Part shown: piece by piece, positions 10,879 to 37,231 of the stretch
How positions within the stretch are numbered: position 1 is the stretch's first letter
How the letters are laid out: each line of letters starts with the position of its first letter
From: Patescibacteria group bacterium
Lineage (GTDB): Bacteria; Patescibacteriota; Patescibacteriia; UBA10025; JAHIVO01
Direction of reading: 5' to 3'
Assembly (NCBI GenBank): GCA_041650915.1
Contig: JBAZKE010000001.1
Span: 611,097 to 675,096 of the forward strand
Length of the DNA: 64,000 nucleotides
Translations under genes and position numbers: made by a program
The notes under the pieces: model-generated
What the model saw: the letters and a program-made list of their open reading frames with translations, nothing else
What the model was told of the DNA's origin: nothing
The model's database searches: none

Positions 10879-11718
10879 TTATGGTCGCAGTAAATACGAC
10901 TTGAGCGCTTCTTCCCATCTCCTCATATGTGGCAGCTTCGTATTGAGTAAAACTGAATAGGGAGGCCTTTTTGCAGCGCGTGGATAGAATGACCCAGCCA
11001 CAGGATTGAGCTTAACACTGATGCCCGATTGAGTAAATATTTCTTGTGCGAAACCAAACCAGGTACATGCACCCTGATTCGTAATATGGTACGTTCCGAA
11101 TGGCAGTTGATTATCAATTAAGTATTTTGTCCTATCGGCCAAATCTTTTGCGTACGTAGGAGAAGAGAGCTCCTCATCCACGATATCGAGTTCTTTTTTT
11201 GATTGTGCCAATGTGAGCATAAGCTCAACAAAACTTTTTTTGCCGGATCTGCCTCGTGAGTTCTTTCCAAAGAGCCGGGAGAGGCGGATAATATAGTGGC
11301 AGTGGCACTTTCGGCGTACTTCATTTTCTCCCAGTAGTTTTGATTTGCCATAAATTGAAATTGGATCAGGGATATCATCTTCACGGTATCCCTTAACGAT
11401 ATTGCCGTTGAATACATAATCAGTGCTGAAGTGGACTAAAATGCCTCCAGCTGCTTCAACGGCAGATGCAAGGTATCCGGGGCCGTACCCATTAATATTC
11501 ATGGCAATAGCTTCCTCCCCTTCTGCTTTATCTACATCATTGAAAGCTGATGCATTTATAACGAGACCCGGTTTTTGGTTTGAAACCAGCTGAACCGACT
11601 GTTTCCTGTCGGTTATATCAAAATCTGAGTGATTCCACTGGATTGGCTTATACTCATGAAACGTATTCATCAGTTCCTGGCCGAGCATGCCTTGTGCACC
11701 TATAATGGCTACTTTCAT
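10879..11718 (-). CDS. rmlD: dTDP-4-dehydrorhamnose reductase
   Basis: MKVAIIGAQGMLGQEL Rossmann loop; YGKSKLLGE (Y...K catalytic dyad); 279 aa; ATG overlaps the upstream HD gene. Confidence 0.85.
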   Translation of the reverse strand: MKVAIIGAQGMLGQELMNTFHEYKPIQWNHSDFDITDRKQSVQLVSNQKPGLVINASAFNDVDKAEGEEAIAMNINGYGPGYLASAVEAAGGILVHFSTDYVFNGNIVKGYREDDIPDPISIYGKSKLLGENEVRRKCHCHYIIRLSRLFGKNSRGRSGKKSFVELMLTLAQSKKELDIVDEELSSPTYAKDLADRTKYLIDNQLPFGTYHITNQGACTWFGFAQEIFTQSGISVKLNPVAGSFYPRAAKRPPYSVLLNTKLPHMRRWEEALKSYLLRP

Positions 11719-12308
11719 AGTGAACTATTGCCAGTCATTTTTTTAATTGAATTCTGGACTGTGAGTAAACGTTTTCCTGCTCCGGGGTATTTTCGAAAAC
11801 GGCCATAGGCTTTCTTGAATGTGCCAATATATGGACCTGTTTTTTTTGCATAGCTACAGCGCGCATCACTGTATGCAAGAATTTTTTCTTCAGCGGATTG
11901 AGGAAAAAAATTTTTAGGAAGAAAGCCATTTTTCTTGTTTGTCGCCCTATCGAGCCCGCTTCCGCCTGCATGAGATACGCACATTCGTGCCAGTTCCGGA
12001 TATCCCTTTTTCAACATTATCTCATAACCCGCGTAGCAGTGGATGATTGCAGGCTTTAAAAGTTTCGATCCTTGGCTTCCCGTAACCATCCTGCCGATAT
12101 CATGAATGTAGCATCCCGTCTTCAGCATAGTACTGTTTATTTTCTGCCCGTTATCACGGGCTTGTTTCATGATGCTCCGTGCGAATTTCCATACAGTTTT
12201 AGAATGATCGTTAGTATTGCTTGCCTGCTTAGGAATGCCATTCTCAATTGCGATTTTTCTCATCCATCTCTGTATGGTTGAAATGGTTGGATACCGGCTA
12301 TGTCCCAT
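11715..12308 (-). CDS. HD-domain phosphohydrolase-like protein inserted in the rml operon
   Basis: 197 aa. H...HD...H...D metal-binding arrangement is visible (HSKTVWKFA, CYIHDIGRMV, HCYAGYEIM, SHAGG, YSDARCS). Function not assignable from sequence. Confidence 0.55.
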   Translation of the reverse strand: MGHSRYPTISTIQRWMRKIAIENGIPKQASNTNDHSKTVWKFARSIMKQARDNGQKINSTMLKTGCYIHDIGRMVTGSQGSKLLKPAIIHCYAGYEIMLKKGYPELARMCVSHAGGSGLDRATNKKNGFLPKNFFPQSAEEKILAYSDARCSYAKKTGPYIGTFKKAYGRFRKYPGAGKRLLTVQNSIKKMTGNSSL

Positions 12309-13395
12309 ATTGCTTTTTTAGGTATTCTCGGTGTTCTTTTTTTTGAAGTATCTTTTTCCACCACCACTCATTATTTTGGTACCATGCGATTGTTTTTTTC
12401 AGGTACGTATCGAGGTCATGGAGCGGCCGGTAACCGATTTCTTTTTTTGCCTTTGACCAGTCTACCGCGTACCGTCTGTCATGGCCAGGCCGGTCTTTGA
12501 TAAACTCCACCATTTCATTTCCTTTGCCCATGATTGACAGAACTTTATTGATGAGCGCGAGATTGTCCACGTCCTCAGTCAAGCCGCCAATACAGTACGT
12601 TTGACCAATTTTGCCTTTTGAAAGAATCAGATCAATTGCCCTCGCATGATCGTCTACGTAGAGCCAGTCTCGTATGTATTTTCCGTCGCCGTAGATTGGC
12701 ACCTTCTTCCCCTGCATGACATTAAGGATCGCTACGGGAAGCAGCTTTTCCGGATACTGATATGGTCCGAAGTTATTGGACGTATTTGAAATAGTAATCG
12801 GCAACCCAAATGTCGCGTAGTACGAACGTACAAGATGGTCGGCGCCAGCTTTTGAAGCTGAATACGGGCTCCGTGGGTCGTAGAGCGTTTTTTCATTGAA
12901 CTTACGCGTATCTTCTAATTTGAGCGCACCAAAAACTTCATCAGTTGAAACGTGGTGAAACCGTTTTCCTTCAAAACTACCTTGCTCATTTTTCCATACC
13001 TGTACGGCAGACTCTAGCAAAATATGGGTTCCCCACACGTTATTTAAAATAAAATCATAATTTAAAGAATCGGTAAATAATTCTCCCAGTTCCAGATTGA
13101 GAGTTCCCTTTTCGCGCAGCATAACCGACCTGTCTACGTGGGTACTAGCCGCAAAATGAATTATAGTGTCAATGTTATGCAATTGCAGCGTCTTGATGAC
13201 TTGCTTGATTTCACAAATATCCGCACGAACAAACGTATAGTGCGGATTGTCTTTCAGATCTACCAAATTATCGAGGTTGCCTGCGTATGTCAACTTGTCG
13301 AAATTAACAATCGTATCGCCCGGATGTTCACGCAACCAATAGCGAATGAAGTTTGAGCCGATGAACCCAGCTCCGCCGGTAACGAGTAATTTCAT
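12298..13395 (-). CDS. rmlB: dTDP-glucose 4,6-dehydratase
   Basis: MKLLVTGGAGFIGSNFIRYWL NAD-binding loop; YSASKAGADHLV (Y..K); 365 aa extended SDR. Confidence 0.9.
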   Translation of the reverse strand: MKLLVTGGAGFIGSNFIRYWLREHPGDTIVNFDKLTYAGNLDNLVDLKDNPHYTFVRADICEIKQVIKTLQLHNIDTIIHFAASTHVDRSVMLREKGTLNLELGELFTDSLNYDFILNNVWGTHILLESAVQVWKNEQGSFEGKRFHHVSTDEVFGALKLEDTRKFNEKTLYDPRSPYSASKAGADHLVRSYYATFGLPITISNTSNNFGPYQYPEKLLPVAILNVMQGKKVPIYGDGKYIRDWLYVDDHARAIDLILSKGKIGQTYCIGGLTEDVDNLALINKVLSIMGKGNEMVEFIKDRPGHDRRYAVDWSKAKKEIGYRPLHDLDTYLKKTIAWYQNNEWWWKKILQKKEHREYLKKQYGT

Positions 13396-13942: not shown

Positions 13943-15632
<1,690 letters not shown>

Positions 15633-15633
<1 letters not shown>

Positions 15634-17174
15634 CAATTGAAAAGCTTATTTTTTATCTTAGTAAAAAAATTCTGGAAAGTAATAGGCTCTTTTTCAAGCG
15701 ATACTGACACTTCCTGAACATGAAGCAGTCTGCCATTTTCGGGCAGTCCCGGAAGCGTAATGATGAATTGGACAGAATTATCGGAGTAGTAGAGCTCGGG
15801 CACTTCAACTGTCGCAGTGGCCGTATGCCATTGTCCGTTTATTTCCGGCCGCTTATACTCTGCAATAATGTAATCATATCCGTCCAATGATTCTACGTCA
15901 TTGATGTCTGGTATCAACCCAAAAGTCGTATCAAAAAATTGATCTTGGGAAAAAATAAAATAACCGGAGCCCTGGAGGTAAACGTCATTTTTAGGACTAA
16001 CGATTTTTGTCATGCCAGTTAAATCGGTTGCTTCATATTCCGAATGTAAGCCTGTCAGTGCTAATTCCTGGGCTCCCACGGCCAGCGTTTGTAGCCCGTC
16101 ATTATGAGAAGTACGTGCGGAAATTGAAGGTGCATCTGAAAACAATGTAGTTGGCGTGATTATTTTATCTCCGAGAATATCCTGGTACTCTGCGTTATCC
16201 GTCAGATAAATCGAATCATGGAACATGAGTAAATGCTGGTAGCTGGAAATACCCTTTATAAAAACGTCATCATTGGTTTCAATCGCAATCCGGCAGGTCC
16301 CGTGATTCTCCATGGCAAGGGCTACCCTCAGTACTTGTTCATTATGCACACGCCCTGATGCGAATGTTTCGCCGTCATCAGCGACGATATATGACGCGAT
16401 TTCATTACCGCGAAAATCAAAAACATGCACCTGGATTGAATCTTCACCTTCGTGCCTGTTAATATCCTGGAATGAAAAGGTTATATCGAGCTGCTCATCA
16501 ATGCCAACATACGTGAAAATTTCATGGCTACCGCGCAAACTTTTTGTAATAGTCAATGGAACACTTTGAGCACGGTACCCGGGCATGACTTCCGATTTCA
16601 GGACAGGATAGTTGTACTGCAAGATTTCATTATCAGCAGGCCGGTCGTTTAAAAATTCATCAATTGTCAGGTAATTCCGCTTGCCCCGCTGCAGTAGGAT
16701 CAAATCACCTTCTTGAATGCTTTTCCAATCGCTCGTTCCGACAGAATTAATGACGTCTTCGATCGTTGGACTATAGTGTGCCATGGTTTCAAAAGCGTAT
16801 TGGCCGTCTGATTGCAGCACACCGAGGTTAAGAACTGGTTGTGCGTCCGGATTTTGATACGTGATGGAAATCGTCGCCTTAGGAAAAGGCCGGGGAACAT
16901 TGAGTGTAAAATACAGTGGTGACGTTGTAATCAACTGAGTTACTGCTTGGCCCCCTGACTCATCTTCCGAGCTGAAGTATCGCACTGGCTCTTTGGATGC
17001 GAAATTGCTTATAGATTTTGATCCATGCTCCGCGGTATATTGGAGTTCAAGCATTCCACCCGGTGCATAGTTTTGTACGATGATCCAGCCAATGAGAACC
17101 ATCGGGAGCAGCCAGATAGCGGTGCGCCAGTTCCAAATATTTTTAAAAACTTTCTTAATTCTTTCCAGCTCCAT
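15633..17174 (-). CDS. N-terminally membrane-anchored large extracellular protein (P1, 513 aa), paralogous to the 38426..39994 product; function unknown
   Basis: One N-terminal TM (AIWLLPMVLIGWIIVQNYA) then a hydrophilic, beta-rich region. Shares blocks with the 38426 protein (ISITYQNPDAQPVLNLGV versus VITVQYNPQNESEALLGIK; FDFRGNEIASYIVADDGE versus YDATGNEKLHVSLKDDGN). Directly downstream of a GT-C-like membrane protein. Confidence 0.5.
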
Positions 17175-17218: not shown

Positions 17219-18886
17219 TCAACGAGTTTTTATTGAATACAGAATCTCGTTGGATGGTTGAAAAGAAACAGTCGATCGCAGCAAATAATCGTTAGCACTG
17301 AAAAATTCCATGACTGATCCACTCATACTGTCCAGAGGATTGAACAGGTAGTAGAGCGGGGCTTGATCGAGAATCGTCTGTACCGCATGCTGGGTATTTT
17401 TATCCGGTAGCTGAACAATCACCCTTCGTTCGGGGAAAAAAACTTTATCAGCATATCCTGCAATTAAGACGGCATTAGGTTCTGTTGCTCCGAGTACTGC
17501 ATGCAGCTTTGAAACCGATTCGCTGATGTTTTTTCTTACTGCGAATAAGCCTTGCAGCGGATCATTTAAAACGGTATTGACTGAAAAAATGACGAGTGCC
17601 ATAAAACTACCGACCATGACGGTACGTTTGATGCAATTGCTTCTAAATATGCTACCCGCCAACTGTATGCCCTGAGCGCAAAAAGGCAATCCAAATACGA
17701 AAATCGGGAGCCAGTATCGCAAGTATGACGATCCTAATAAAATTTCTGTACGGTCAATATACTCATAAAAAACGTAAGAGCCATAGTATAGGATAAGCCA
17801 CAGCACGACTGCCGCGTATACGTACGTATACGCATACTGCCAGTTAATCGCCTTCCTGGGACTCTGAGCGCTTGAATTTTTTTTCTTCACTAATGCCAGT
17901 ATGCTGCTTCTGATGGAAGCGGCGAGCCCGATCACGATAAAAAATGCATACAACGGAAAAAATAAAAGCAAATACTGTATTGTTGCTGCTTGGATTCTTT
18001 CAAAATTTAGCCCGAAGGGAAATAAAAGTTTTTCAAATTTCAATAGAATTGATTGGGATGCCGTTTTTATACTGGAAAGGTCTGTGGATTCTGCTGAGTA
18101 ACCGAAAGCTAACGGAGATCCATACAGGCTGTTGTTGAGAACCAGCAGAACAACGCATGCAATAAGCAGCGCCCCAACAAATCCGATTAACGGAAATTTT
18201 TGTACATGTCTTCGATTAATTATTAATATGAAGGCTACCACAGGAATAACCCAGGTGATTTCGGATGTCCTAGTAATGAGCGCTAACCCAATCGCGATGC
18301 CTGACCCAATATTGTAAAACCATGCTGCATGTAATGAAGTTTGCCTCGTAAGAGAATATATTAAAAGTAGCAAGCCAATGATCAGAAAAACCAAAAATAG
18401 GACATTGTGAAATAAGCCTCGTGAACTAAAGTACCAGAATGGCGGCAGTGCGAACATGAGCAGTGAAGCAATGAATGAAATGTTTTTTGGAAAAAACTCT
18501 TTGCATAACAGATAAAAGCATATTACTCCGACAACGGCGAAGAAAGGAGTAAATAAAAAAATATATCCACTCCCGGCTACTTTTGCTAAGAAACCATATA
18601 ACAACGGAAGGCCCAAAAAACTGGCAGGTACCGTGCCTGAAGGTGTCACAATCATACTTCGGGGCACTACAATTCCGCCTGCTGCGTCATTCAGCGGCTC
18701 GTCATAGCGGAGGGAATTGTTTTCTGAAAAAAGGGAGCTAAAAAAATAATTTGCAGTCTCATCTGGCGAGGTAAACGTATTCTCGGTTTGAAAGTGCAGC
18801 CATGAGTATACAAAAAAGAAAAAACAGGCTAGAATGGTTAAAATACAAACGTGCCAATTTCGCTTTACGTATGCAGAAAATTCCAT
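17219..18886 (-). CDS. Large polytopic membrane protein, GT-C-like glycosyltransferase candidate (M1, ArnT/PMT-like architecture)
   Basis: 555 aa with more than 10 predicted TM helices. First extracytoplasmic loop carries an acidic motif (LRYDEPLNDAAGG) reminiscent of the GT-C catalytic loop. Adjacent to a GtrA-like gene and a UbiA/DPPR-synthase-like gene. Confidence 0.45.
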   Translation of the reverse strand: MEFSAYVKRNWHVCILTILACFFFFVYSWLHFQTENTFTSPDETANYFFSSLFSENNSLRYDEPLNDAAGGIVVPRSMIVTPSGTVPASFLGLPLLYGFLAKVAGSGYIFLFTPFFAVVGVICFYLLCKEFFPKNISFIASLLMFALPPFWYFSSRGLFHNVLFLVFLIIGLLLLIYSLTRQTSLHAAWFYNIGSGIAIGLALITRTSEITWVIPVVAFILIINRRHVQKFPLIGFVGALLIACVVLLVLNNSLYGSPLAFGYSAESTDLSSIKTASQSILLKFEKLLFPFGLNFERIQAATIQYLLLFFPLYAFFIVIGLAASIRSSILALVKKKNSSAQSPRKAINWQYAYTYVYAAVVLWLILYYGSYVFYEYIDRTEILLGSSYLRYWLPIFVFGLPFCAQGIQLAGSIFRSNCIKRTVMVGSFMALVIFSVNTVLNDPLQGLFAVRKNISESVSKLHAVLGATEPNAVLIAGYADKVFFPERRVIVQLPDKNTQHAVQTILDQAPLYYLFNPLDSMSGSVMEFFSANDYLLRSTVSFQPSNEILYSIKTR

Positions 18887-18960
18887 ATTGCTTTCACCAG
18901 TATACCACCCTGAGCCGCCTTTTCAAAATGCTTTTTTGTTGATAGTATGATAGCTGGCAT

Positions 18961-19341
18961 ATGAAAAAAAATGAACTCATTATTAGCCTTGTTTCCTTCG
19001 GATTCCTCGTTCTGATCGCTTTCATTCTCAGCTTTTTTTTAACACTGTCGGAAGCCTTTCGCCTTGTGTTTGGGACGATGTTTATCCTTTTTATCCCCGG
19101 ATTCGCGTGGAGCTGGATTTTTTGGAAGCGCGGCAGTATCGATGCAATCGAACGCGGGACACTGTCGATAGCGCTCTCTATTGCTTTTGTACCGCTCACA
19201 ACGTACTTGCTCTTCAAAGCCGGAATCGCCATTTCTTTATTCAATGTTTTGATCGAAGTCGCTGGTCTTATTATCGCGGCAATCGTGATAAAGTATTATG
19301 CCGATAAAAAAGAGAAGCGCCTGGGTTTTAAAAAACCATAA
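18961..19341 (+). CDS. Small 4-TM membrane protein, GtrA-like (candidate polyprenyl-phosphate-sugar flippase)
   Basis: 126 aa with four hydrophobic helices and a basic C-terminal tail (KYYADKKEKRLGFKK). Size and topology typical of the GtrA family; located between a GT-C-like gene and a UbiA gene. Confidence 0.4.
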   Translation: MKKNELIISLVSFGFLVLIAFILSFFLTLSEAFRLVFGTMFILFIPGFAWSWIFWKRGSIDAIERGTLSIALSIAFVPLTTYLLFKAGIAISLFNVLIEVAGLIIAAIVIKYYADKKEKRLGFKKP

Positions 19342-19385
19342 ATTACTAAGTTTCGACCGTGCAGCTCCTGTATTTTATAAAATCA

Positions 19386-20234
19386 ATGCGCCCGCATCAG
19401 TGGATTAAAAACCTGTTGCTATTTGCAGCGGTAATTTTTTCTAATAATCTATTCCACGCCGATCTCTTACTTACGTCGGTTTTTGCATTTGTTCTTTTCT
19501 GCGGCCTATCCGGAAGTTCGTATATTATCAACGATTTTATTGATAGGGATAAAGACAAAGGCCACCCGGAAAAAATAAAGCGTCCCCTTGCCTCCGGAAA
19601 GCTTAATTTCACTCTCGCGCTCTTTGGATCAGCTGCCATACTCATCGCTTCCATTGGCATTTCATTTTTCATTAATTACCGGTTTGCAATTATTACTATC
19701 ATATACCTTGCGCTCAATCTCCTGTACTCGGTTTTTTTAAAAAATTTCGCGATCATAGATGTCCTTGTAATTGCGCTTCTCTACGTCCTGAGGGCGGTGG
19801 CTGGAGCCGAAGCGATCGGTGTCGCAATTTCTCCGTGGCTGCTGATTTGTACGCTCCTACTCTCCCTCTTTCTCGCCTTTGGGAAACGGCGCCATGAGCT
19901 GACATCACTTGCGGCCAATGCGTCTGACCACCGTATTATACTCCGTGATTATTCAGAAAAGCTTCTTGATCAAATGATCGCAATCGTCACTGCATCAACG
20001 GTCATTGTTTACATTCTTTACACTGTTTCAGATGATGTGATAGCCCACTTTGGCACTACGAATCTCGTGTATACGGTACCATTCGTACTCTATGGAATTT
20101 TCAGGTACCTCTTTCTTATTCATAAGAGAGACCTCGGAGGCAGCCCCTCTAAAATTTTTTTAAATGATAGGCCGCTCTTGATTACTATTATGCTGTGGTT
20201 TTTAACTGTTATAGCAATTATTTACCTCCGATAG
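19386..20234 (+). CDS. UbiA-family prenyltransferase resembling decaprenyl-phosphate 5-phosphoribosyltransferase (DPPR synthase, Rv3806c-like)
   Basis: MRPHQWIKNLLLF N-terminus; Asp-rich motif NDFIDRDKDKGHPEKIKRPLASGKL, resembling the DPPR-synthase block NDvrDveaDreHPtKrfRPiAaG; second Asp-rich region; 8-9 TM. Track ORF starts at GTG 19359; the ATG at 19386 is preferred. Confidence 0.65.
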   Translation: MRPHQWIKNLLLFAAVIFSNNLFHADLLLTSVFAFVLFCGLSGSSYIINDFIDRDKDKGHPEKIKRPLASGKLNFTLALFGSAAILIASIGISFFINYRFAIITIIYLALNLLYSVFLKNFAIIDVLVIALLYVLRAVAGAEAIGVAISPWLLICTLLLSLFLAFGKRRHELTSLAANASDHRIILRDYSEKLLDQMIAIVTASTVIVYILYTVSDDVIAHFGTTNLVYTVPFVLYGIFRYLFLIHKRDLGGSPSKIFLNDRPLLITIMLWFLTVIAIIYLR

Positions 20235-20308
20235 ACTCGATCCGTACAAAAAAATATTCCCACATGAACTTATTTTCACTACTCAACTAACTTTTTACGA
20301 CCTACTAC

Positions 20309-21364
20309 ATGGAACGCTCACATGGCAAAAAAATTCGTTTCGCGGTGATCGGATGCTCTCGCATCTCGAGCCAGCATTTTGGATCAATGCTGCTCTATAA
20401 AGAAGCGGTCGACATTGTCGCTCTCTGTGACATAGTGAAAGACCGAGCTGAAGAATTCGGAAAAAAATATAATGCAGAACCGTATACCGACTATAAAAAA
20501 ATGCTCAATCGTGACGATATTGATGTCGTTTCCATTTGCACACCAAATGGATTGCACGCAGAAATGGCAATCGCTACTGCAGAGGCAGGGAAAAATGCCC
20601 TCGTTGAAAAACCGATCGCACTCAATATCGCAGAAGCAGATACAATGATTAAGGCTTTTGAAAAAAACAAGAAAAAACTTTTTGTGGTGAAGCAAGTACG
20701 CTACAATCCCGCAGTTATCATCGCGAAAACAACAATCGATGACGGTAAGCTCGGAAAACTCTACTCAGGAAGCTTGACGGTCCGCTGGACGCGTCCGCAA
20801 GCATACTTCGATGAAGTAAATTGGCGTGGCACAAAAAAGCTCGACGGCGGGGCGCTCTTGAACCAAGGCGACCACTACGTTGATGTCCTCCAATGGCTCT
20901 TCGGGCCAGTCAGGAGCGTTTTTGCCAAAACGGATACCGTTGCGCATACGATTGAAACTGAAGATGAGGCGTTTGCCCTCCTTCAATTCCAGAACGGAGC
21001 GTATGTCACGCTGGAGTTCACCATTAATACGTACCCAAAAAACCTTGAATGCTCGCTCACGGTCCTCGGCAGTAAAGGAAGCATAAAAATCGGCGGAAAA
21101 GCTATTGATTCTTTTGATTTTTGGGAAGTTGAGGATTACCCGGAACCGTCCATCCAAGATAATATTCCAACTAAGGTCTATGAACTGGGATTGTTCCAGG
21201 GCGCATCGCCTCGGCATATTTTTGTGTACCAAAACATCATTGACCATTTTAATAATTTCAAAGATGTTGCCATGGACGGCAAGGAAGCCAGGAAATCAGT
21301 AGAAATCGTTGAAGCGATCTACCGTTCTGCCCGAACGAATAAGCAAGTAAATTTACCGCTGTAA
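20309..21364 (+). CDS. Gfo/Idh/MocA-family NAD(P)-dependent oxidoreductase (candidate UDP-GlcNAc 3-dehydrogenase, WbpB/WlbA-like)
   Basis: IRFAVIGCSRISSQHF Rossmann start, DIVALCDIVKDRAEEFGKKY, EKPIALNIAEADTMI; 351 aa. Context is with DegT aminotransferase, acetyltransferase and 2-epimerase genes. Confidence 0.75.
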   Translation: MERSHGKKIRFAVIGCSRISSQHFGSMLLYKEAVDIVALCDIVKDRAEEFGKKYNAEPYTDYKKMLNRDDIDVVSICTPNGLHAEMAIATAEAGKNALVEKPIALNIAEADTMIKAFEKNKKKLFVVKQVRYNPAVIIAKTTIDDGKLGKLYSGSLTVRWTRPQAYFDEVNWRGTKKLDGGALLNQGDHYVDVLQWLFGPVRSVFAKTDTVAHTIETEDEAFALLQFQNGAYVTLEFTINTYPKNLECSLTVLGSKGSIKIGGKAIDSFDFWEVEDYPEPSIQDNIPTKVYELGLFQGASPRHIFVYQNIIDHFNNFKDVAMDGKEARKSVEIVEAIYRSARTNKQVNLPL

Positions 21365-21374: not shown

Positions 21375-22631
21375 ATGCCCCTACTCATTTTTGAAAATAA
21401 AAATTACAAGCAGCTGTACCCGATCGCGTATACTCGGCCGACATTCGATACGATCCTCGGAATGTCATCACTGCTCGATAAAATACTTGGACGCTTCTCA
21501 ACGCAAAACGTTTCACTCTTTTGCAGAGATTTCCTGCGGCCGATGGTTAAACGCAATTATAAAAAGTATGGCGTTAATGTTTTTCCAAAAGGCGATGAAG
21601 TTATTCTCATTGATGGAACGGTAGTCATGGATGGAGTCCTGTCAAAAATGCTCCATCAGTTTACAAAAGATACTGTGGTAACAAATGGCAAACAGCTAGT
21701 AGCTGCCCGCATTTCCGGCAGCAATTTAAAAAAGCTCAAGGGTTCAAAACAAATTGATTTGTCACTCGTCAGAGCCCCGAAGAAAAAAGTACCCGTAAAA
21801 GTAGTCCAATATATCTGGGAAACTATATTGATCAATAGTGCACAGTTGAAAAAAGACTTTGCTCAAACGGGAAAGCTTGGGATTCAACAGTCAAAACCCT
21901 TAGGTGGAGAAAATTCCATATTTCTAGTCCAAAAAGAAAATATATACATTGCACCGCGCGTAGAACTTTTTCCGCTTGTTACCATAGATGCAAAAAGCGG
22001 CCCTGTTTACATCGAACGCGGAACAACCATTGCGCCGAATGTCATTATTCGCGGTCCTGTTTACATCGGGAAAAACTGCACTATTAACAGCGGTGCCAAG
22101 ATACTCCCCGGCACCACCATCGGTGAGAGCTCAAAAGTCGGCGGTGAGATCGCAGAGACTATCATCCACGGTTTTTCTAACAAGCAACACGACGGTTTTC
22201 TCGGGCATTCGTATATCGGTACATGGTGCAATTTGGGCGCGAATACCAACAACAGCGACCTTAAAAATAACTATAGTCCCGTTTCCATCCAGATTGGGTC
22301 CGATACGTACGACACGCAACAACTCTTTGCCGGAATTTTTATGGGGGACCACTCGAAAACCGGAATTAATACCATGCTCAACACTGGCACGGTAATTGGA
22401 GCCGGCTGCAATATTATCGGTACCGGTTATCCGAGGAAATTCGTTCCGTCGTTTACCTGGGATAACCAGCAGCACAAGCCGGTCACACACGCTTTTGATA
22501 AGTTTATTGCGACTGCAAAAGTTGTATGCAAGCGCAGAAACGTAATGCTGACAGCTGCAGATAAAAAACTCTATGCTGCTGCTTTTACCAACACGAGCAT
22601 CGATCGAACCCACTTTAATTCAAAACGGTAA
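21375..22631 (+). CDS. Nucleotidyltransferase-like plus left-handed beta-helix (hexapeptide) protein with a degenerate nucleotide-binding loop
   Basis: N-terminal approximately 200 aa align to the sugar-phosphate nucleotidyltransferase fold, but the G.G.R loop is replaced (LIFENKNYKQLYPIAYTRPTFD). C-terminal half has hexapeptide repeats (IAPNVIIRGPVYIGKNCTINSGAKILPGTTIGESSKVGGE...). Confidence 0.5.
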   Translation: MPLLIFENKNYKQLYPIAYTRPTFDTILGMSSLLDKILGRFSTQNVSLFCRDFLRPMVKRNYKKYGVNVFPKGDEVILIDGTVVMDGVLSKMLHQFTKDTVVTNGKQLVAARISGSNLKKLKGSKQIDLSLVRAPKKKVPVKVVQYIWETILINSAQLKKDFAQTGKLGIQQSKPLGGENSIFLVQKENIYIAPRVELFPLVTIDAKSGPVYIERGTTIAPNVIIRGPVYIGKNCTINSGAKILPGTTIGESSKVGGEIAETIIHGFSNKQHDGFLGHSYIGTWCNLGANTNNSDLKNNYSPVSIQIGSDTYDTQQLFAGIFMGDHSKTGINTMLNTGTVIGAGCNIIGTGYPRKFVPSFTWDNQQHKPVTHAFDKFIATAKVVCKRRNVMLTAADKKLYAAAFTNTSIDRTHFNSKR

Positions 22632-22633: not shown

Positions 22634-23650
22634 ATGAAAATAGGCATCTACGGGATAGGAAGCTTCGGTTTCGCGATCCTGCAGCACATCAGTACAAACC
22701 AATTAATCAAATCCTCCGTTGAAGTTATCGCGTACGACCGGGACAAGGAACTTATAAACCATTTGCAGAAAAAAAGGAGGCATCTTCACCACCACAAAAA
22801 AATCCTTATCCAAGAAAACGTATTGTTCACGAACAACGAGAAGGATGTTTTTTCAGGCAATGACGTAGTTATTATTTCCATTACTTCATCGGCAATAGCA
22901 CACGTACTTAAAAAAAACACCAAGTTCATTAATAAAAAAATGATTCTGCTGAATACCACGAAGGCGCTCGATAAAAAAACTGCTCGATGCTTTTCAGAAA
23001 TTGTCGGTGGTATGCCGGTCATTCGCCGGCACGCTTGCCCCCTGGCAGTCATAGCAGGCGGCACGATCGCATCCGACCTTTTTCACCATGAGCCCCTTGG
23101 CGTAGACATCGGTTGTGGCGATCCTGGCGCCCTTAAGGTGTTAAAAAAATTATTTCTCTCTGACAACCTTAACGTGTACACTACTTCAGACGTACGCGGT
23201 ATCGAGTATGCGGGTGCTTTTAAAAACGTAATTTCGATCCTCGCTGGAATCGTTAACGGCTGCGGATTTTCTTACGGATCGGAGACGCACCTTATAACCC
23301 GTGCGGCTTTTGAGACTACGAGGTTATTGAAGAAAAAAATCTCCATTGATCCATACACTTTCTCAATGTACAGCCAGTGCTGGGGAAATGATCTTTGGCT
23401 CAGTTGCACTGGAAATACGAGAAACCGTGAATTTGGCATGCTCATCGGAAAAGGGTTTTCTCCAAAAAATGCTTTACATACAATGAGTTCTCAGCGTAAA
23501 ACTGTCGAAGGCGTCAATACGGTCCAGGCTCTGAAAAAATTCAATCTCTCGCCTGCATTTCCGATTTTTAATGGAATATATCGTATCGTAGTAAAAAATC
23601 AAAAACCTAAAAAAGTCATTCTTGAACTCATGGCATCAAACCAAATATAG
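22634..23650 (+). CDS. NAD(P)H-dependent glycerol-3-phosphate dehydrogenase (GpsA)-like protein
   Basis: MKIGIYGIGSFGFAIL dinucleotide loop; core block DVRGIEYAGAFKNVISILAGIVNGCGFSYGSETHLITRAAFETTRL resembles GpsA DViGvElgGAlKNViAIaAGi...ALitRgl.EmtRL; 338 aa. Confidence 0.65.
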   Translation: MKIGIYGIGSFGFAILQHISTNQLIKSSVEVIAYDRDKELINHLQKKRRHLHHHKKILIQENVLFTNNEKDVFSGNDVVIISITSSAIAHVLKKNTKFINKKMILLNTTKALDKKTARCFSEIVGGMPVIRRHACPLAVIAGGTIASDLFHHEPLGVDIGCGDPGALKVLKKLFLSDNLNVYTTSDVRGIEYAGAFKNVISILAGIVNGCGFSYGSETHLITRAAFETTRLLKKKISIDPYTFSMYSQCWGNDLWLSCTGNTRNREFGMLIGKGFSPKNALHTMSSQRKTVEGVNTVQALKKFNLSPAFPIFNGIYRIVVKNQKPKKVILELMASNQI

Positions 23651-23738: not shown

Positions 23739-24335
23739 ATGACGATGCAAAAAGAATCCAAAAAACCATATTTTGCACATGAGACCAGCCTGGTGGACGA
23801 GCCAGCCACTATCGGCAGCGGAACAAAAATTTGGCATTTTGCGCATATCATGAAAGGCGCAAAAATTGGAAAAAATTGTTCATTTGGGCAAAATGTATAC
23901 GTTGGAAGCGGCGCTATTGTTGGCGATAACGTTAAGGTGCAAAACAATGTCTCTATTTACGATGGCGTAACTCTCGAGGATTATGTTTTTTGCGGGCCTT
24001 CGATGGTTTTTACCAATGACCTGAATCCGCGCTGCAAGTACCCCAAGCATGGGCACTACGTTAATACAACAATTCGCTACGGTGCGAGCATTGGGGCGAA
24101 CGTAACCGTCGTCTGCGGCCATACGATCGGCAGGCACGCATTCATCGGTTCCGGATCGGTTGTAACAAAAGATATTCCGGATTATGCGCTTGCGTTTGGC
24201 AATCCTGCTAAAATTCAAGGTTGGATGTGCGAATGTGGCACAAAACTGAGCTTTGCGGGCGGTGATGCGCAATGCGCTACGTGCAAGCGAAAATTTACCA
24301 AAAAAGATACTATTATTAAAGAAATACTAAAATGA
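23739..24335 (+). CDS. Hexapeptide-repeat sugar N-acetyltransferase (WbpD/WlbB-like) with a C-terminal Cys4 zinc-ribbon tail
   Basis: Left-handed beta-helix repeats (IGKNCSFGQNVYVGSGAIVGDNVKVQNNVSIYDGVTLED; IGRHAFIGSGSVVTKDIPDYALAFGNPAKIQG), then WMCECGTKLSFAGGDAQCATCKRKF (C.C...C..C). Confidence 0.75.
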   Translation: MTMQKESKKPYFAHETSLVDEPATIGSGTKIWHFAHIMKGAKIGKNCSFGQNVYVGSGAIVGDNVKVQNNVSIYDGVTLEDYVFCGPSMVFTNDLNPRCKYPKHGHYVNTTIRYGASIGANVTVVCGHTIGRHAFIGSGSVVTKDIPDYALAFGNPAKIQGWMCECGTKLSFAGGDAQCATCKRKFTKKDTIIKEILK

Positions 24336-25438
24336 AATTGCTCGATTTAAACGCCCAGTACGAACCTATTAAGGAAGAGATAAACGCTGCCATTCAGGAT
24401 GTCCTCAACCGGACCGCATTTATGCTCGGTGAGGATTTAAAAAATCTCGAATCAGAAATCGCTGCATATTGCGGATCGAAGTATGCGGTCGGCCTCAATT
24501 CTGGCACCGACGCCCTCCTATTCGCCATCCGTGCGTATGATATCGGGCCGGGTGATGAAGTTATTACAACGCCATTCACTTTCATTTCAACCGCCGAAGT
24601 AGTGGCGGTTCGCGGAGCGAAGCCTGTTTTTGTTGATATTATTCCTGATACTTTTAATATCGATCCTGAGCTCATCGAAGAAAAAATTACACCACGGACA
24701 AAAGCGATTATCCCTGTGCATTTATACGGCCAGACTGCTGATATGGAACCCATCATGGAGCTCGCAAAAAAACATAACCTCAAAGTCATCGAAGATGCAG
24801 CCCAGTCGATAGGCGCTGAATACAATGGCAAAAAGGCATGCTCCATCGGGGATATCGGATGTATTTCTTTTTTCCCGGCGAAAAATCTCGGCGCATACGG
24901 CGACGCCGGAATGATTACGACTGATGATGAGGCGATCGCCGAACATATTCGCATGGCACGTAATCATGGTTCGAGAAAAAAATACTACCATGAATTTTTA
25001 GGTGATTCTTCACGCCTCGATAACCTTCAAGCCGCAATTCTTCGCGTTAAATTGAAATATATTGACCAATGGAATAATAAGCGCATAGAAAACGCTGAAT
25101 ACTATAATGCATTATTTTCAAAAGTGAAAGGGGTCGTCACACCAAAAACACTTGCCAATACAAAAACGGTATACCAGCAGTATACGATACGAATTCAGAA
25201 TAGGGATAAAGTTCAGGCTTACCTAAAGGAAAATGGAATACCGACCGCCGTCCACTACCCCACGCCCCTGCACCTCCAGCCGGTATTTCTGAACATGAAT
25301 TTAGGTTTTTCAGAAGGTGATTTTCCTGAATCTGAAAAAGCGGCTCGTGAGGTATTGTCACTGCCAATGTACCCGGAGATAAGCCGATCAGACGAAGAAG
25401 AAATCGTCGCCCAGATCGAGCACGCGTTAAAAATCTAG
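24332..25438 (+). CDS. DegT/DnrJ/EryC1/StrS-family PLP-dependent sugar aminotransferase (WbpE-like)
   Basis: 368 aa. Motifs DEVITTPFTFISTAEVV, AIIPVHLYGQTADME and ISFFPAKNLGAYGDAGMITTDD (the Lys-containing PLP region). ATGA overlap with the upstream acetyltransferase gene. Confidence 0.85.
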   Translation: MKLLDLNAQYEPIKEEINAAIQDVLNRTAFMLGEDLKNLESEIAAYCGSKYAVGLNSGTDALLFAIRAYDIGPGDEVITTPFTFISTAEVVAVRGAKPVFVDIIPDTFNIDPELIEEKITPRTKAIIPVHLYGQTADMEPIMELAKKHNLKVIEDAAQSIGAEYNGKKACSIGDIGCISFFPAKNLGAYGDAGMITTDDEAIAEHIRMARNHGSRKKYYHEFLGDSSRLDNLQAAILRVKLKYIDQWNNKRIENAEYYNALFSKVKGVVTPKTLANTKTVYQQYTIRIQNRDKVQAYLKENGIPTAVHYPTPLHLQPVFLNMNLGFSEGDFPESEKAAREVLSLPMYPEISRSDEEEIVAQIEHALKI

Positions 25439-25445: not shown

Positions 25446-26528
25446 ATGAATAAAAAAATTATTTGCTCAGTTGTTGGCGCAAGGCCGCAATTCATTAAAC
25501 TTGCTCCCTTATCGAAACAACTCCAGCAATCCTACAATGAAGTCATCATTCACACTGGACAGCATTACGATAAAGAATTATCGAAGATTTTTTTTGATAC
25601 GCTCAATATCCCGAAACCGGACTATAATTTAAATGTCCGGTCAGGAACTCACGGAGCCCAAACCGGCATCATGCTTGCCGGCCTCGAAAAACTCTTTACG
25701 AAACTGAAGCCAAAACTCGTGCTTGTTTTTGGCGATACGAATTCCACTCTCGCCGGTGCACTCGCAGCGGCAAAAATGCATATTCCTGTCGCACATGTCG
25801 AATCGGGCATGAGAAGTTTCAATAAAAAAATGCCAGAGGAACGAAACCGAATCATTACGGATCATATCTCCGACATCCTTTTTTGTTCTACACAACAATC
25901 AAAACGGTGGCTCGAGCAAGAAAATATTACTCGAAATGTGCACGTCGTCGGCGATCTTATGATTGATGCGCTGATGGACCATGCAAAAATTGCAATGGCT
26001 GACTCCCACGTTATCCACGATCTGAATATTAAACCAAAGAGTTATTACCTCTCGACAATACATAGGGCTGAAAACACAGACAGTAAATTTCGGCTGGAGA
26101 ACATCTTAGCGGCCTTAGCAAAATCAAATAAAAGAGTTATTTTGCCGCTCCACCCTCGGACAAAAAAAATGATAAAAAAGCATGGCTTATCCAGTTACCT
26201 CCATTCAAAACAGCTACTCGTCATACCTCCTGTAAGCTACCTCGATATGCTCCAGCTTGAAATGAATGCATTAAAAATTGCAACCGATTCCGGCGGCATA
26301 CAGAAGGAGGCATACTTTTTTAAAGTCCCCTGCGTTACGCTCAGAGATGAAACTGAGTGGCTCGAGACCGTCAAAGGCGGGTGGAATGTCGTTACCGGCG
26401 TCGAGAAAAAAAAGATCCTCAATGCTCTACGAAAATCTTCTACTCCTCGCAAACATACTGCGAGTTACGGCAGCGGGAATGCAGCAAAAAAAATCGTAGT
26501 ATGGCTCAATGCATTCTTGTCCAAGTAA
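25446..26528 (+). CDS. wecB: UDP-N-acetylglucosamine 2-epimerase (non-hydrolysing; WecB/WbpI-like)
   Basis: VVGARPQFIKLAPL, HTGQHYD, VFGDTNSTLAGALAAAKMHIPVAHVESGMRSF, MPEERNRIITDHISD are canonical Epimerase_2 motifs. Confidence 0.85.
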   Translation: MNKKIICSVVGARPQFIKLAPLSKQLQQSYNEVIIHTGQHYDKELSKIFFDTLNIPKPDYNLNVRSGTHGAQTGIMLAGLEKLFTKLKPKLVLVFGDTNSTLAGALAAAKMHIPVAHVESGMRSFNKKMPEERNRIITDHISDILFCSTQQSKRWLEQENITRNVHVVGDLMIDALMDHAKIAMADSHVIHDLNIKPKSYYLSTIHRAENTDSKFRLENILAALAKSNKRVILPLHPRTKKMIKKHGLSSYLHSKQLLVIPPVSYLDMLQLEMNALKIATDSGGIQKEAYFFKVPCVTLRDETEWLETVKGGWNVVTGVEKKKILNALRKSSTPRKHTASYGSGNAAKKIVVWLNAFLSK

Positions 26529-33076: not shown

Positions 33077-33559
33077 TTAGCATCCTCGAGGGATTTTTCT
33101 AATTGTATCGATAATCTTAGTGGTGGATTGCAAGTTTCTTTTTCGATGAATCAGAACGAGCTTTCCTCCATGTCGTTTTACAGCAGGCGCCTCAACACAC
33201 TTTTTGCCGTACTCCGAGCTGTTAACGTGCACATCTGGACGTACAATATTGATAAATGCAATCGGATTTAGCTCGCCGAAAACATACAGGTAATCGACGT
33301 ATTGAATCGCTTCCAATACCGCAAGCCTGTTGTTCAGCGTCATCACTGGACGGTACTTGCCCTTATATCTTTTAACCGATGCGTCGCTATTGACGCCGAC
33401 GATGAGCACATCACCGTACGTTTTCGCTTTGCGCAGCAAAAAGACATGCCCGGCGTGAAAAATATCAAACGAACCGTTTGTTGTTACGATTTTTTTTCGG
33501 TGTGTCCGCAGTTTTGTAACAAGAGTAACGAGCTCCTGTTTACTGAGCCTTTTATTCAT
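33077..33559 (-). CDS. hldC: D-glycero-beta-D-manno-heptose 1-phosphate adenylyltransferase (RfaE/HldE domain II type, cytidylyltransferase fold)
   Basis: IVTTNGSFDIFHAGHVFLLRKAKTYGDVLIVGVNSDASVKRYKG...LAVLEAIQYVDYL matches the HldE C-terminal domain (GcFDilHaGHv.yL..Ar.lGD.LiVaVNSDaS.krlKG; vL.aLeaVDwV). The track ORF (to 33658) overlaps gmhB by 107 nt, so the start was moved to the in-frame ATG at 33559 (8-nt overlap). Confidence 0.75.
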   Translation of the reverse strand: MNKRLSKQELVTLVTKLRTHRKKIVTTNGSFDIFHAGHVFLLRKAKTYGDVLIVGVNSDASVKRYKGKYRPVMTLNNRLAVLEAIQYVDYLYVFGELNPIAFINIVRPDVHVNSSEYGKKCVEAPAVKRHGGKLVLIHRKRNLQSTTKIIDTIRKIPRGC

Positions 33560-34085
33560 GATGCTGTATCCATTTACCGGCAGCGAGCAAATTATCCGCC
33601 GTATAAGTTGGTTGCCCATCTGCTCGGTTATATGACATTCCGCTGCCTGTTCGAACAAGGATTGTCTTCGTATTCAATGCAATCCCCGCTTGAATATCAT
33701 TAACGCTGTCACCGATTACATAAGATTGTGAAAAGTCAATGTCATATCTTTCAGCGGCCGCTCTATAATTACCGAGCTGGGGCTTGCGGCAATTACATGA
33801 TTCTTCTGGTGTATGCGGGCATAGATATATTGCACAAATGGTAATGCCTTGCTCATCAAGCTGCTTCAGCATGTTTTTCATAAATGCATGGCATTCTTCT
33901 TGGGTGAAATATTTACGTCCGATACCGGATTGGTTTGTAATAATGATGAGGATAAATCCCAGTTGTTGCAGGAGACGAAGCCCTTCAATGACCCCTGGAA
34001 AAAATTCCAAATCTTCGATCTTGTAAGTATACCCATGATCTACGGTGATTGTTCCGTCCCGATCTAAAAAAACTGCTTTGTGCAT
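33552..34085 (-). CDS. gmhB: D-glycero-D-manno-heptose 1,7-bisphosphate phosphatase (HAD family)
   Basis: VFLDRDGTI (HAD motif I), IITNQSG, Zn-binding insertion CPHTPEESCNCRKP typical of GmhB, GDSVNDIQAG (motif IV). Confidence 0.85.
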   Translation of the reverse strand: MHKAVFLDRDGTITVDHGYTYKIEDLEFFPGVIEGLRLLQQLGFILIIITNQSGIGRKYFTQEECHAFMKNMLKQLDEQGITICAIYLCPHTPEESCNCRKPQLGNYRAAAERYDIDFSQSYVIGDSVNDIQAGIALNTKTILVRTGSGMSYNRADGQPTYTADNLLAAGKWIQHHE

Positions 34086-34088
34086 ACT

Positions 34089-35090
34089 TCAGACCGTAAG
34101 CTGCCGCATCAATTCTTGTTTCGTAACAGTTGACGTGCCGCGTTTGCCAATGCTAATTTTTGCGGCGTATGCGGCAAGCGTCGTAGCTTCTATCGGTTGC
34201 AGGGTGCCTGCGGTGAGTGCAATAACGGCGGCGACAGTATCGCCGGCGCCAGAAACATCAAGTACCGTATCTGCAAATGATGGGATTGTCTTGCACAATC
34301 CGTTTCCGGTGACCAGATACATACCTTTACTTCCCCGGGTGAGAAGTACGTTCTTGATTTTTAAATCTCTTTGCAACTGCCGCGCCAATTCGGTAAGTTT
34401 TGCCTCCGATTCATCATAGGTACTGTACATTTTTAAAAGCTCAATTTCATTCGGCGTAATGTAATCAGCGCCGCTATAATATGATTTATTCTTTGGCTTT
34501 GGATCGATGATGACGTACTTCCTGGCAGCTTGAGCGCGTTTAATGATAGTTGACGTTAATCGCTTGGTGAGTACTCCTTTCTGATAATCTGAAAAAAGGA
34601 CGCAATCGACCTGTTTTAAAGCCGAAGTGGCATAGCGAATAATTTTATTTTCCAGCTGCAAACTTATTTTTTTCACATGTTCTTCGTCAACCCGGAGCAA
34701 CTGTTGTCCATGCGATACGATCCTCATCTTGACAATTGTCGGCCGATGATGATCCACAAATATCCCCGCTTCATCCATCTTGCTTTTCTTGAGCGTATGG
34801 AGAAAACTGCCTGCAAGATCCTGATGATTCCCCTGATCGCCGATAACTCCGGCCAAGAGAACCTTTCCCCCTAATGCACGAATATTTTCCGCTGCATTGG
34901 CCGCACCGCCGAGCTTGTAATATTTTTTTTCTGTAGTCACAACCAGCACAGGGGCTTCTTGTGAAATAGAGCGCGGCGACCCCTCAATATACAAATCGAG
35001 CATGAGATCTCCAATGACTAGGATTCTTTTTTTTGAAAAAGTTTTTACGGCTGAAATATACTTGGAATTAGATTTCATTTTCATATACAA
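34089..35090 (-). CDS. hldA: D-glycero-beta-D-manno-heptose 7-phosphate kinase (pfkB/ribokinase family; RfaE/HldE domain I type)
   Basis: KRILVIGDLMLDLYIEG, PVLVV, GGAANAAENI, C-terminal DVSGAGDTVAAVIALT (pfkB signature 2); 333 aa. Confidence 0.8.
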   Translation of the reverse strand: MYMKMKSNSKYISAVKTFSKKRILVIGDLMLDLYIEGSPRSISQEAPVLVVTTEKKYYKLGGAANAAENIRALGGKVLLAGVIGDQGNHQDLAGSFLHTLKKSKMDEAGIFVDHHRPTIVKMRIVSHGQQLLRVDEEHVKKISLQLENKIIRYATSALKQVDCVLFSDYQKGVLTKRLTSTIIKRAQAARKYVIIDPKPKNKSYYSGADYITPNEIELLKMYSTYDESEAKLTELARQLQRDLKIKNVLLTRGSKGMYLVTGNGLCKTIPSFADTVLDVSGAGDTVAAVIALTAGTLQPIEATTLAAYAAKISIGKRGTSTVTKQELMRQLTV

Positions 35091-35103
35091 ATAACTTTAC
35101 CTG

Positions 35104-36891: not shown

Positions 36892-37231
36892 CAGTCGCTT
36901 CGCTAATTTCAACATCCCCCCGCAGCGCCACCCGACGGACAATCTGGGTAATCTCCCGCTCGATATGTTCCATTTTCACATACAATCGGAACATTCCATA
37001 AAACAAGACAAGCAGTGCGAGGTAAATCACTGCGTCGACGCCACGTCCAACGCCGAGCATGTCAGCAATGATTGTGGTGGTTTGCGGAAGAACTGCCGCT
37101 ACGGCGATCCCAATCCACAGTACGCTCCAGAGTAAAAATTCAATAAGCGTTACGTGCTTTTCACGGAATCTTAAAAAAACGCGTGACAGTGCAAAAACGG
37201 TAAAAAGTATTATCAGGATTTTAATTGCCAT
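36860..37231 (-). CDS. Small 3-4 TM membrane protein (DUF2304/GtrA-like), partner of the adjacent DPM1-like GT2
   Basis: 123 aa with hydrophobic helices (ILIILFTVFALSRVFL, LLWSVLWIGIAVAAVL, VIYLALLVLFYGMF). Starts 1 nt after the GT2 stop. Confidence 0.45.
   Translation of the reverse strand: MAIKILIILFTVFALSRVFLRFREKHVTLIEFLLWSVLWIGIAVAAVLPQTTTIIADMLGVGRGVDAVIYLALLVLFYGMFRLYVKMEHIEREITQIVRRVALRGDVEISEATDERKKKSINR

Follow-up and report, generated by a model that had tools for sequence, protein, structure and literature searches.

A phosphoribosyltransferase-type UbiA gene, probably a recent insertion between a conserved GT-C operon and a diacetamido-sugar operon in a Patescibacterium

The stretch of DNA analysed here (the window) comprises 64,000 nt from a Patescibacteria group bacterium. 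Side by side in it lie genes for a glycosyltransferase with a GT-C fold (M1), a small DUF1616-type membrane protein, a UbiA-superfamily protein (UbiA) and a Gfo/Idh/MocA oxidoreductase (Gfo) (Table 1). An earlier note had proposed that these four open reading frames (ORFs), all of which we recovered with identical boundaries, form a system for lipid-linked pentofuranose glycosylation. We favor a different reading, with a probability of about 0.6, in which the locus combines three separate units: an intact, recently inserted UbiA gene of the polyprenyl-phosphate phosphoribosyltransferase type (PPPRS; DPPRS for the decaprenyl-phosphate enzyme) sits between a conserved GT-C operon of the candidate phyla radiation (CPR) and an operon for a diacetamido sugar.

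We found that UbiA scores 287.6 bits on the NCBIfam model for decaprenyl-phosphate phosphoribosyltransferase (NF008977, cutoff 234) and 212.9 bits on NF008978 (cutoff 207), and only 20-48 bits on models of MenA-, UbiA-, CyoE-, ChlG- and GGGP-type prenyltransferases, siding with the DPPRS enzymes as had been proposed. Residues 6-287 align with Mycobacterium tuberculosis Rv3806c (PDB 8j8j) at E = 1.5e-34, and the next PDB relative, a DGGGP synthase, follows at E = 5.7e-5. The NDxxDxxxD...HP.K...RP arrangement that the earlier note had described is present as N58-D59-F-I-D62-R-D-K-D66-K-G-H69-P70-E-K72-I-K-R75-P76. Its N-D-x-x-D-x-x-x-D part (N58, D59, D62, D66) lies in cytoplasmic loop 1 and, like the K-R-x-x-E motif (K176, R177, E180), is invariant or near-invariant across 120 homologues. 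In Rv3806c, N73 and D77 are Mg2+ ligands, K28, Y70, Q135 and Y157 bind ribose and the 5-phosphate, R22, K87, R90, K143 and Y138 form the pyrophosphate cluster, and the phosphoribose-binding sites are absent from prenyltransferases (PMC10994848). The window protein has R11, K17, Y55, N58, D59 and D62 at the positions of Rv3806c R22, K28, Y70, N73, D74 and D77, and D66, K72, R75, Y123, K128 and Y142 at those of D81, K87, R90, Y138, K143 and Y157. Rv3806c Q135 is replaced by N120, a residue shared by 27 of the 120 homologues, and Rv3806c K208 is not conserved in an alignment judged by eye.

Comparison with the closest relative, L083, gave a dN (nonsynonymous divergence) of 0.14 for UbiA; synonymous divergence (dS) was saturated, as it also was for M1, DUF1616 and p513 (the gene downstream of M1), so that no dN/dS could be computed for any of them. 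Amino acid identity to L083 is higher for UbiA (80%) than for p513 (68%), M1 (64%) or DUF1616 (63%), and reaches 91% for Gfo. Judged from these comparisons UbiA is intact and under constraint, although its start could alternatively be the ATG at 19386. Because the DPPRS models, the Rv3806c alignment, the kept ligands and the constraint all agree, transfer of phosphoribose from phosphoribosyl pyrophosphate (PRPP) to polyprenyl phosphate is a well-supported prediction for its activity. The family is very large outside Actinobacteria, with at least 7,900 homologues at E<=1e-10, and some members in metagenome-assembled genomes (MAGs) of Deltaproteobacteria and Aminicenantes are already annotated as decaprenyl-phosphate phosphoribosyltransferase.

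To place UbiA in its genomic context we compared loci around M1. Relatives of M1 occur in 417 species-level genomes of GTDB; the best 80 loci, almost all from Patescibacteria, were taken with 10-kb flanks and, with one further locus (L002), make a set of 81. A UbiA homologue lies within 10 kb of M1 in none of these 81 loci of other Patescibacteria, and in none of the 46 with at least 5 kb on both sides. L083 and L001, the closest two relatives, retain the adjacency of M1 and UbiA, and in them the order is DUF1616-UbiA-DUF362-Gfo. In L002, whose M1 is 44% identical, M1 is accompanied by p519 and p138, and the divergent DUF1616 gene overlaps Gfo by 4 bp with no UbiA between them; among the nearer relatives of M1 the divergent DUF1616 gene often leads straight into Gfo and an alternative GlmU. 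The window has 74 bp between the end of UbiA (20234) and the start of Gfo (20309), which share a strand, and tblastn at E<=10 recovered no trace of DUF362 there. Because DUF1616 runs straight into Gfo in the UbiA-less L002, we interpret UbiA as a clade-specific insertion. Parsimony favors the insertion of a UbiA-DUF362 pair between DUF1616 and Gfo in a single lineage, followed by the loss of DUF362 in the window. The proposal that UbiA and M1 form a module is not borne out by these loci.

The usual company of this UbiA subfamily was assessed in 86 loci (80 from metagenomes and six others). The M1 family stands beside it only in the window's clade and is absent from the other 83 loci. The commonest immediate downstream gene is DUF362 (PF04015), found on the same strand in 30-37 of the 86 at a median offset of -3 bp. 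Some loci carry fuller modules with dedicated partners: L086 reads SDR-UbiA-DUF362-799 aa-AftB-like GT-C (the last matching NF041481 at E = 7e-37), L088 reads UbiA-DUF362-flippase-like (TIGR00374)-PHP phosphoesterase, and in L085 an SMR/EamA protein is encoded upstream of UbiA. Homologues of DUF362, the L086 SDR, the AftB-like and 799-aa proteins, the L088 flippase-like and PHP proteins, the L085 SMR protein and a 307-aa protein were all absent from the window at E<0.01. A second context, STAS-UbiA-304 aa-GT4-GT4, accounts for 17-21 of the 86 loci (L084:9558-13213; L095; L136). The 304-aa protein matches no family. No GT-C adjoins UbiA in this arrangement, which suggests a different, cytoplasmic-face pathway for some of the 'DPPRS' homologues.

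No PDB entry is related in sequence to DUF362 at E<=1, and DUF362 goes unmentioned in the description of PPPRS systems by Kelly et al. (2024, PMC11127046), including the supplement. It shares Pfam clan CL0471 with the N-domain of the LarA racemase (PMC11770544), and because of this shared clan it is a candidate lipid-linked pentose epimerase; by analogy, it could act as an epimerase or redox partner for polyprenyl-phosphate-ribose. It is conceivable, though we think it quite unlikely, that UbiA-DUF362 is a mobile donor cassette of two genes in which DUF362 would replace DprE1/DprE2, that one copy of it entered a Patescibacterial envelope locus, and that the window's UbiA would feed ribofuranose to M1, p513 and a third operon gene, m139. 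The same recurrence of DUF362, which follows UbiA in L083, L001 and L088 as well and has left no trace in the window, could instead mark UbiA as what is left of a decayed UbiA-DUF362 cassette, an orphan that no longer has a glycan role or is heading for loss. UbiA does stand in the window without an accompanying phosphatase, flippase or dedicated GT-C. A decaying gene is improbable, however, given that the ORF is full length, that all 17 catalytic or ligand positions checked are retained (with N120 as the equivalent of Q135), and that UbiA, at the dN given above against a saturated dS, is more similar to its L083 counterpart than M1, DUF1616 and p513 are to theirs.

The GT-C side of the locus appears to have a history of its own. 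M1 passes the Pfam PMT_2 model, an identical protein has been deposited as 'glycosyltransferase family 39 protein', and a GT-C fold, as the earlier note had predicted, was confirmed. The first extracytoplasmic loop, just after the first transmembrane segment, carries an S40-P-D42-E43 stretch that is invariant in a 39-sequence family alignment and includes an acidic pair. Structurally M1 is nearer to STT3, ALG12 and ArnT than to AftA, AftB, AftD or Emb of M. tuberculosis, with lower scores against the arabinofuranosyltransferases (AftD 15.3, AftA 14.3, AftB 13.7, EmbA 8.9). M1 is no closer to Aft/Emb than to OST, ALG, ArnT and PMT enzymes, and neither its sequence nor its structure gave an Aft/Emb-specific affinity.

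Among 68 loci with at least 2.5 kb of downstream sequence, 42 have a p513-like gene directly after M1, and 45 have an m139-like gene farther along, downstream of M1/p513. The M1-p513-m139 operon spans Patescibacteria, including Uhr-, Kerfeld-, Falkow-, Kuenen- and Komeilibacteria and others. Neither p513 nor m139 matches a Pfam or NCBIfam family. Carbohydrate-binding modules (CBMs) are fused to GT-C domains in Emb proteins and in the GT136 enzyme of Citrobacter (Kelly et al. 2024, PMC11127046). By analogy, the separate, co-transcribed, CBM-like p513 suggests a glycan, and not a protein, as the target of M1. A Patescibacteria-type M1-p513-m139 operon was also seen in many MAGs labelled 'uncultured Gammaproteobacteria bacterium' (L003, L008-L010, L016, L021, L022, L025, L036 and others). 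Their contigs have the size of small genomes (e.g. OZ246416.1, an 886-kb chromosome), and the label looks like a placeholder or an error.

Between M1 and UbiA lies the 126-aa protein that had been read as GtrA-like. It has four hydrophobic segments and matches the N-terminal part of DUF1616 (PF07760) at E = 2.8e-12, and the GtrA profile (PF04138) found no match at E<=5 in this protein, in m139 or in p159, an m139 paralogue elsewhere in the window. Size and four-segment topology resemble those of the GtrA family and are not diagnostic. Of the three component types described as adjacent, a four-segment membrane protein does lie between the GT-C and UbiA genes, but it is a DUF1616 protein and not GtrA. 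Its family (595 representative homologues) consists mostly of stand-alone proteins of 120-140 aa. In longer homologues the domain is usually C-terminal and the remainder has no informative Pfam family; the exception, P0331, joins an N-terminal DUF1616 to a polysaccharide-deacetylase domain. These Rosetta-stone fusions gave no functional clue. The DUF1616 gene is divergent upstream of M1 in 11 of the 70 loci with at least 1 kb of upstream sequence, including L002.

These observations bear on a reduced form of the proposed module, in which the UbiA donor synthase, DUF1616 as a flippase-like handler and M1 would, in this clade, make up a ribofuranosylation system of the type described by Kelly et al. 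(2024, PMC11127046), with an unlinked 5-phosphatase and without Gfo. The three genes form an uninterrupted run around a single divergent promoter region, M1 facing away from DUF1616, UbiA and Gfo across a 74-bp spacer, and L083 and L001 retain this order. Promoter-like sequences in the spacer match the consensus on both strands (TTGAAA-16-TATACT with TG at 18926-18899 on the minus strand, TTCAAA-18-TATGAT at 18922-18951 on the plus strand). Total matches in a promoter and terminator scan of the region were not above shuffled expectation, and operon boundaries therefore rest on gene spacing. A constrained UbiA with its catalytic residues, a bona fide GT-C with a D-E pair in its outer loop, and the variation of published three-component systems in flippase type and phosphatase position (PMC11127046) also speak for such a system. 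Against it, M1, p513, m139 and DUF1616 are conserved together where UbiA is absent within 10 kb, which indicates that they are older than UbiA and can do without it. DUF1616 is neither of the GtrA/SMR nor of the MATE type, the normal partners of the UbiA subfamily are DUF362, flippase-like, PHP and AftB-like genes and not M1, and the operon holds no phosphatase candidate: no PAP2 or other 5-phosphatase was found near UbiA, itself a 291-aa single domain with no fused HAD. We therefore consider the reduced module unlikely.

Gfo belongs to the third unit. It matches PDB 3q2i and 3q2k over residues 7-351 at E = 7e-79 and 2e-78, and most other Gfo/Idh/MocA members match at 1e-13 or weaker. We take these two entries to be WlbA UDP-GlcNAcA (UDP-N-acetylglucosaminuronic acid) 3-dehydrogenases from Chromobacterium and Bordetella. 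The best NCBIfam match, below its cutoff, was an archaeal UDP-N-acetylglucosamine (UDP-GlcNAc) 3-dehydrogenase. Downstream of Gfo lie WlbB-, WbpE- and WecB-like genes (Table 1), and in other loci Gfo occurs without UbiA. On the basis of the WlbA match, these neighbors and the UbiA-independent context in relatives, Gfo is predicted to be a WlbA/WbpB-type UDP-GlcNAc(A) 3-dehydrogenase of a UDP-2,3-diacetamido-sugar operon. A dehydrogenase, an acetyltransferase, an aminotransferase and a 2-epimerase in one operon resemble Bordetella and Chromobacterium WlbA and the WbpB-WbpE-WbpD-WbpI pathway of Pseudomonas (for UDP-ManNAc3NAcA), of which the latter makes a UDP-2,3-diacetamido sugar (PMC10622841). 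Unlike that pathway, the operon in the window also has genes for an alternative GlmU and a GpsA-like protein interspersed. A WbpA-type UDP-GlcNAc 6-dehydrogenase was not seen among the scanned window ORFs, and the product may therefore be a non-uronic 2,3-diacetamido sugar.

This assignment leaves little room for the full pentofuranose model of the earlier note, in which Gfo would replace DprE1/DprE2 and epimerise polyprenyl-phosphate-ribose to arabinose or another pentose for transfer by M1. No FAD_binding_4/ALO (DprE1-type) or DprE2 gene was seen among the scanned window ORFs. Gfo does share its strand with UbiA, which ends 74 bp upstream of it, and Gfo/Idh/MocA enzymes carry out sugar oxidoreductions in general. 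But the full-length WlbA-structure match at ~1e-79 stands against 1e-13 or weaker for most other members, and Gfo has an operon of its own. It sits beside DUF1616 without UbiA in L002 and other loci, DUF362 intervenes between UbiA and Gfo in L083 and L001, and its high identity to the L083 protein was maintained despite the change in UbiA-Gfo spacing. With M1 no closer to Aft/Emb than to OST, ArnT and PMT, we regard the full model as extremely improbable.

Under the composite reading that we prefer, each unit would act separately. M1 would move a sugar from a polyprenyl-phosphate donor onto an extracytoplasmic glycan, with D42 and E43 of outer loop 1 as its probable catalytic residues and p513 holding the acceptor glycan. 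The usual donor for M1 would be a polyprenyl-phosphate-hexose or -N-acetylhexosamine (-HexNAc) from a PpgS-like GT2/DUF2304 pair, because homologues of GT2a and DUF2304, both encoded elsewhere in the window, travel with M1 loci in about half of the genomes. GT2a-like genes lie within 10 kb of M1 in 28 of the 52 loci with at least 8 kb upstream, DUF2304 in 20 of the 52, and in many relatives GT2 + DUF2304 pairs are found 5-7 kb upstream of M1. As judged by co-occurrence, a GT2-made polyprenyl-phosphate-hexose or -HexNAc is the better-supported donor for the M1 family than one derived from phosphoribose. The plus-strand operon would make a UDP-2,3-diacetamido-2,3-dideoxy sugar that feeds cytoplasmic GT4 enzymes. 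UbiA would most likely condense PRPP with polyprenyl phosphate to polyprenyl-phosphate-5-phosphoribose, and since no epimerase is present the delivered sugar would be ribofuranose. M1 is a candidate GT-C for this product by adjacency, and two further window proteins, p642 and p513b, are other candidates.

Several points weigh against the composite reading. The survey covered +/-10 kb around M1 homologues, and UbiA may lie farther away in those genomes. All three members of the clade keep the adjacency and share the 74-bp divergent region, and UbiA may have been recruited there to supply M1. Genes for a phosphatase, flippase or epimerase could be located elsewhere in the genome, beyond the window. 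The PpgS-like donor, too, is linked to M1 through co-occurrence (~54%) at a distance of 5-7 kb, and Kelly et al. (2024, PMC11127046) showed that the donors a single GT-C can use include more than one pentofuranose.

Table 1. Features of the window and DUF362 genes found beside UbiA in other loci (positions in the window unless a locus is given)
Feature	Position	Strand	Size	Description
m139	15217-15636	-		small membrane protein; third gene of conserved M1 operon
p513	15633-17174	-		N-terminally anchored, all-beta ectodomain with CBM-like jelly-roll domains; directly downstream of M1
M1	17219-18886	-	555 aa	GT-C fold glycosyltransferase, PMT_2/GT39-like; small C-terminal alpha/beta domain
divergent intergenic region	18887-18960		74 bp	between M1 and DUF1616 gene; promoter-like hexamers facing both ways
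DUF1616	18961-19341	+	126 aa	small membrane protein; first gene of plus-strand operon
UbiA	19359-20234	+	291 aa	UbiA-superfamily polyprenyl-phosphate 5-phosphoribosyltransferase (DPPRS/PPPRS type), predicted
Gfo	20309-21364	+	351 aa	Gfo/Idh/MocA oxidoreductase, WlbA/WbpB type
alternative GlmU	21375-22631	+		TIGR03991, 364.6 bits, above cutoff
GpsA-like	22634-23650	+
WlbB-like N-acetyltransferase (LbH)	23739-24335	+		PDB 3mqg, E 2e-60
WbpE-like aminotransferase (DegT)	24332-25438	+		WbpE, E 1e-101
WecB-type 2-epimerase	25446-26528	+		TIGR00236, 310.4 bits, above cutoff
DUF2304	36860-37231	-		membrane protein directly after GT2a
GT2a	37233-37907	-	224 aa	PpgS-like GT2; full-length match to NF058614, 160.6 bits, below cutoff 370
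p159	37904-38383	-		m139 paralogue, E 5e-12
p522	38426-39994	+		p513 paralogue, E 8e-16
p513b	39997-41538	-		~11 transmembrane segments; no family match
p642	57234-59162	-	642 aa	~13 hydrophobic segments; PMT_2 E 0.0017 (below cutoff); LA_3751/3752 putative glycosyltransferase (Leptospira) E 3e-4
DUF362 genes beside UbiA	L083:8983-10071; L001:1628-2716; L086:8888-9970; L088:1167-2258

The rest of the window fits an envelope-glycan setting. By Pfam it consists almost entirely of envelope-glycan genes, among them the rml genes, numerous genes of the GT4 and GT2 families, those for two Wzx-like flippases and a heptose pathway, and FnlA-like genes. The window has ~42% GC, and the Patescibacterial host is non-actinobacterial and low in GC, as had been said of it. 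The paralogous set at 36860-41538 looks, from its gene content, like a second lipid-linked-sugar glycosylation unit; NF058614, which GT2a matches, is the model of the polyprenyl-phospho-GalNAc synthase PpgS. The predicted p642 is a second candidate GT-C and a possible user of the UbiA product. The Wzx/MATE-like genes (41764-43113 and 49691-51175) lie 22-30 kb from UbiA.

A complete-looking heptose-nucleotide pathway (33077-35706) comprises SIS/GmhA-like, PfkB kinase, HAD phosphatase and cytidylyltransferase-like genes, and a GT9 heptosyltransferase-like gene lies at 60091-61110. Patescibacteria are not known to make lipopolysaccharide, and such a pathway is unexpected in them. The HAD gene at 33552-34085, the only one in the window, was considered as the missing 5-phosphatase and rejected, as it lies inside this GmhA/kinase/nucleotidyltransferase set. 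In the rml operon an HD-domain gene is wedged in (RmlB-HD-RmlD-RmlC-RmlA; 11715-12308 and 12298-13395, minus strand). RmlB matches Pfam models in two stretches, suggesting an insertion of ~25 residues near residue 90-113, and the HD/Nudix/AdoHcyase/RmlB neighborhood was found again in L002 and L083.

If UbiA is active, an ultra-small CPR bacterium would spend PRPP on a lipid-linked ribofuranose donor for surface glycans, and the three-component pentofuranose concept of 2024 would extend to a phylum about whose envelope chemistry very little is known. Were the cassette reading to hold, with UbiA feeding ribofuranose to the M1 system, this would amount to the first description of lipid-linked pentofuranose glycosylation from the candidate phyla radiation. 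The more useful outcome may be the assignment of the parts. The GT-C is part of an operon that spans Patescibacteria, includes a CBM-like partner and does not depend on the synthase, the oxidoreductase is placed in a diacetamido-sugar pathway, and the recurrent partner of the synthase subfamily in environmental bacteria is DUF362, a LarA-clan protein.

Compared with M. tuberculosis, the window's UbiA aligns end to end with Rv3806c (8j8j/8j8k), keeps its Mg2+, phosphoribose and pyrophosphate ligands and likewise adjoins a GT-C gene. The arabinan locus of M. tuberculosis also includes the phosphatase Rv3807c, DprE1/DprE2, the GtrA-type Rv3789 and AftA/AftB/Emb, whose counterparts were not found in the window, and the host here, unlike M. 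tuberculosis, is a Patescibacterium without a mycolyl-arabinogalactan wall. The full-length PpgS match of GT2a and the adjoining DUF2304 gene resemble M. tuberculosis PpgS (Rv3631), which feeds the GT-C Rv3779, although GT2a stays below the equivalog cutoff of the PpgS model. In M. tuberculosis the DUF2304 protein Rv3632 stimulates PpgS. Outside Actinobacteria, NoeC/NoeHOP of Azorhizobium is a DPPRS-type system. Loci of this kind and of the Pseudomonas aeruginosa PA7 pilin type carry DprE1/DprE2 homologues and make arabinofuranose, whereas the window has neither homologue; the Pseudomonas pilin arabinofuranose system is cited as DPPRS-type outside Actinobacteria by Kelly et al. (2024, PMC11127046).

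Kelly et al. (2024, PMC11127046) gave biochemical proof, for the O antigens of Citrobacter youngae, of pentofuranose systems built from a PPPRS, a flippase and a GT-C. They described such systems as widespread and named further candidates in Stenotrophomonas, Burkholderia, E. coli, Rhizobium, Xanthomonas, Rathayibacter, Bacillus and a phage. The occurrence of such systems outside the mycolata, which is what the earlier note proposed for this locus, had thus been published. In C. youngae O1 the components are ORF15 (PPPRS-PRP), ORF14 (a MATE flippase) and ORF12 (a GT136 GT-C) (PMC11127046). Were the reduced module correct, the window would follow the same scheme, in which PRPP and polyprenyl phosphate yield a lipid-linked ribofuranose donor that is flipped and then used by a GT-C on the extracytoplasmic side. 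By the features that Kelly et al. use, the window has the synthase and lacks the phosphatase and the MATE/SMR flippase; the GT-C is adjacent to the synthase in the window, L083 and L001 and in none of the 81 other M1 loci. As in C. youngae O1, the N-D-x-x-D-x-x-x-D motif and the R..E pair are kept, and without an epimerase the predicted sugar is ribofuranose. Unlike C. youngae ORF15, UbiA has no fused HAD phosphoribose-phosphatase domain, and unlike in the O1 locus there is no adjacent MATE/SMR transporter, the CBM-like part is a separate protein (p513) rather than fused to the GT-C, and the GT-C is PMT_2/GT39-like with an operon conserved independently of the synthase. The supplement of Kelly et al. 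lists no Candidatus or Patescibacteria taxa, and a literature search for DPPRS in Patescibacteria found no paper; the phylum is new for a DPPRS-type enzyme, while the kind of enzyme is already known.

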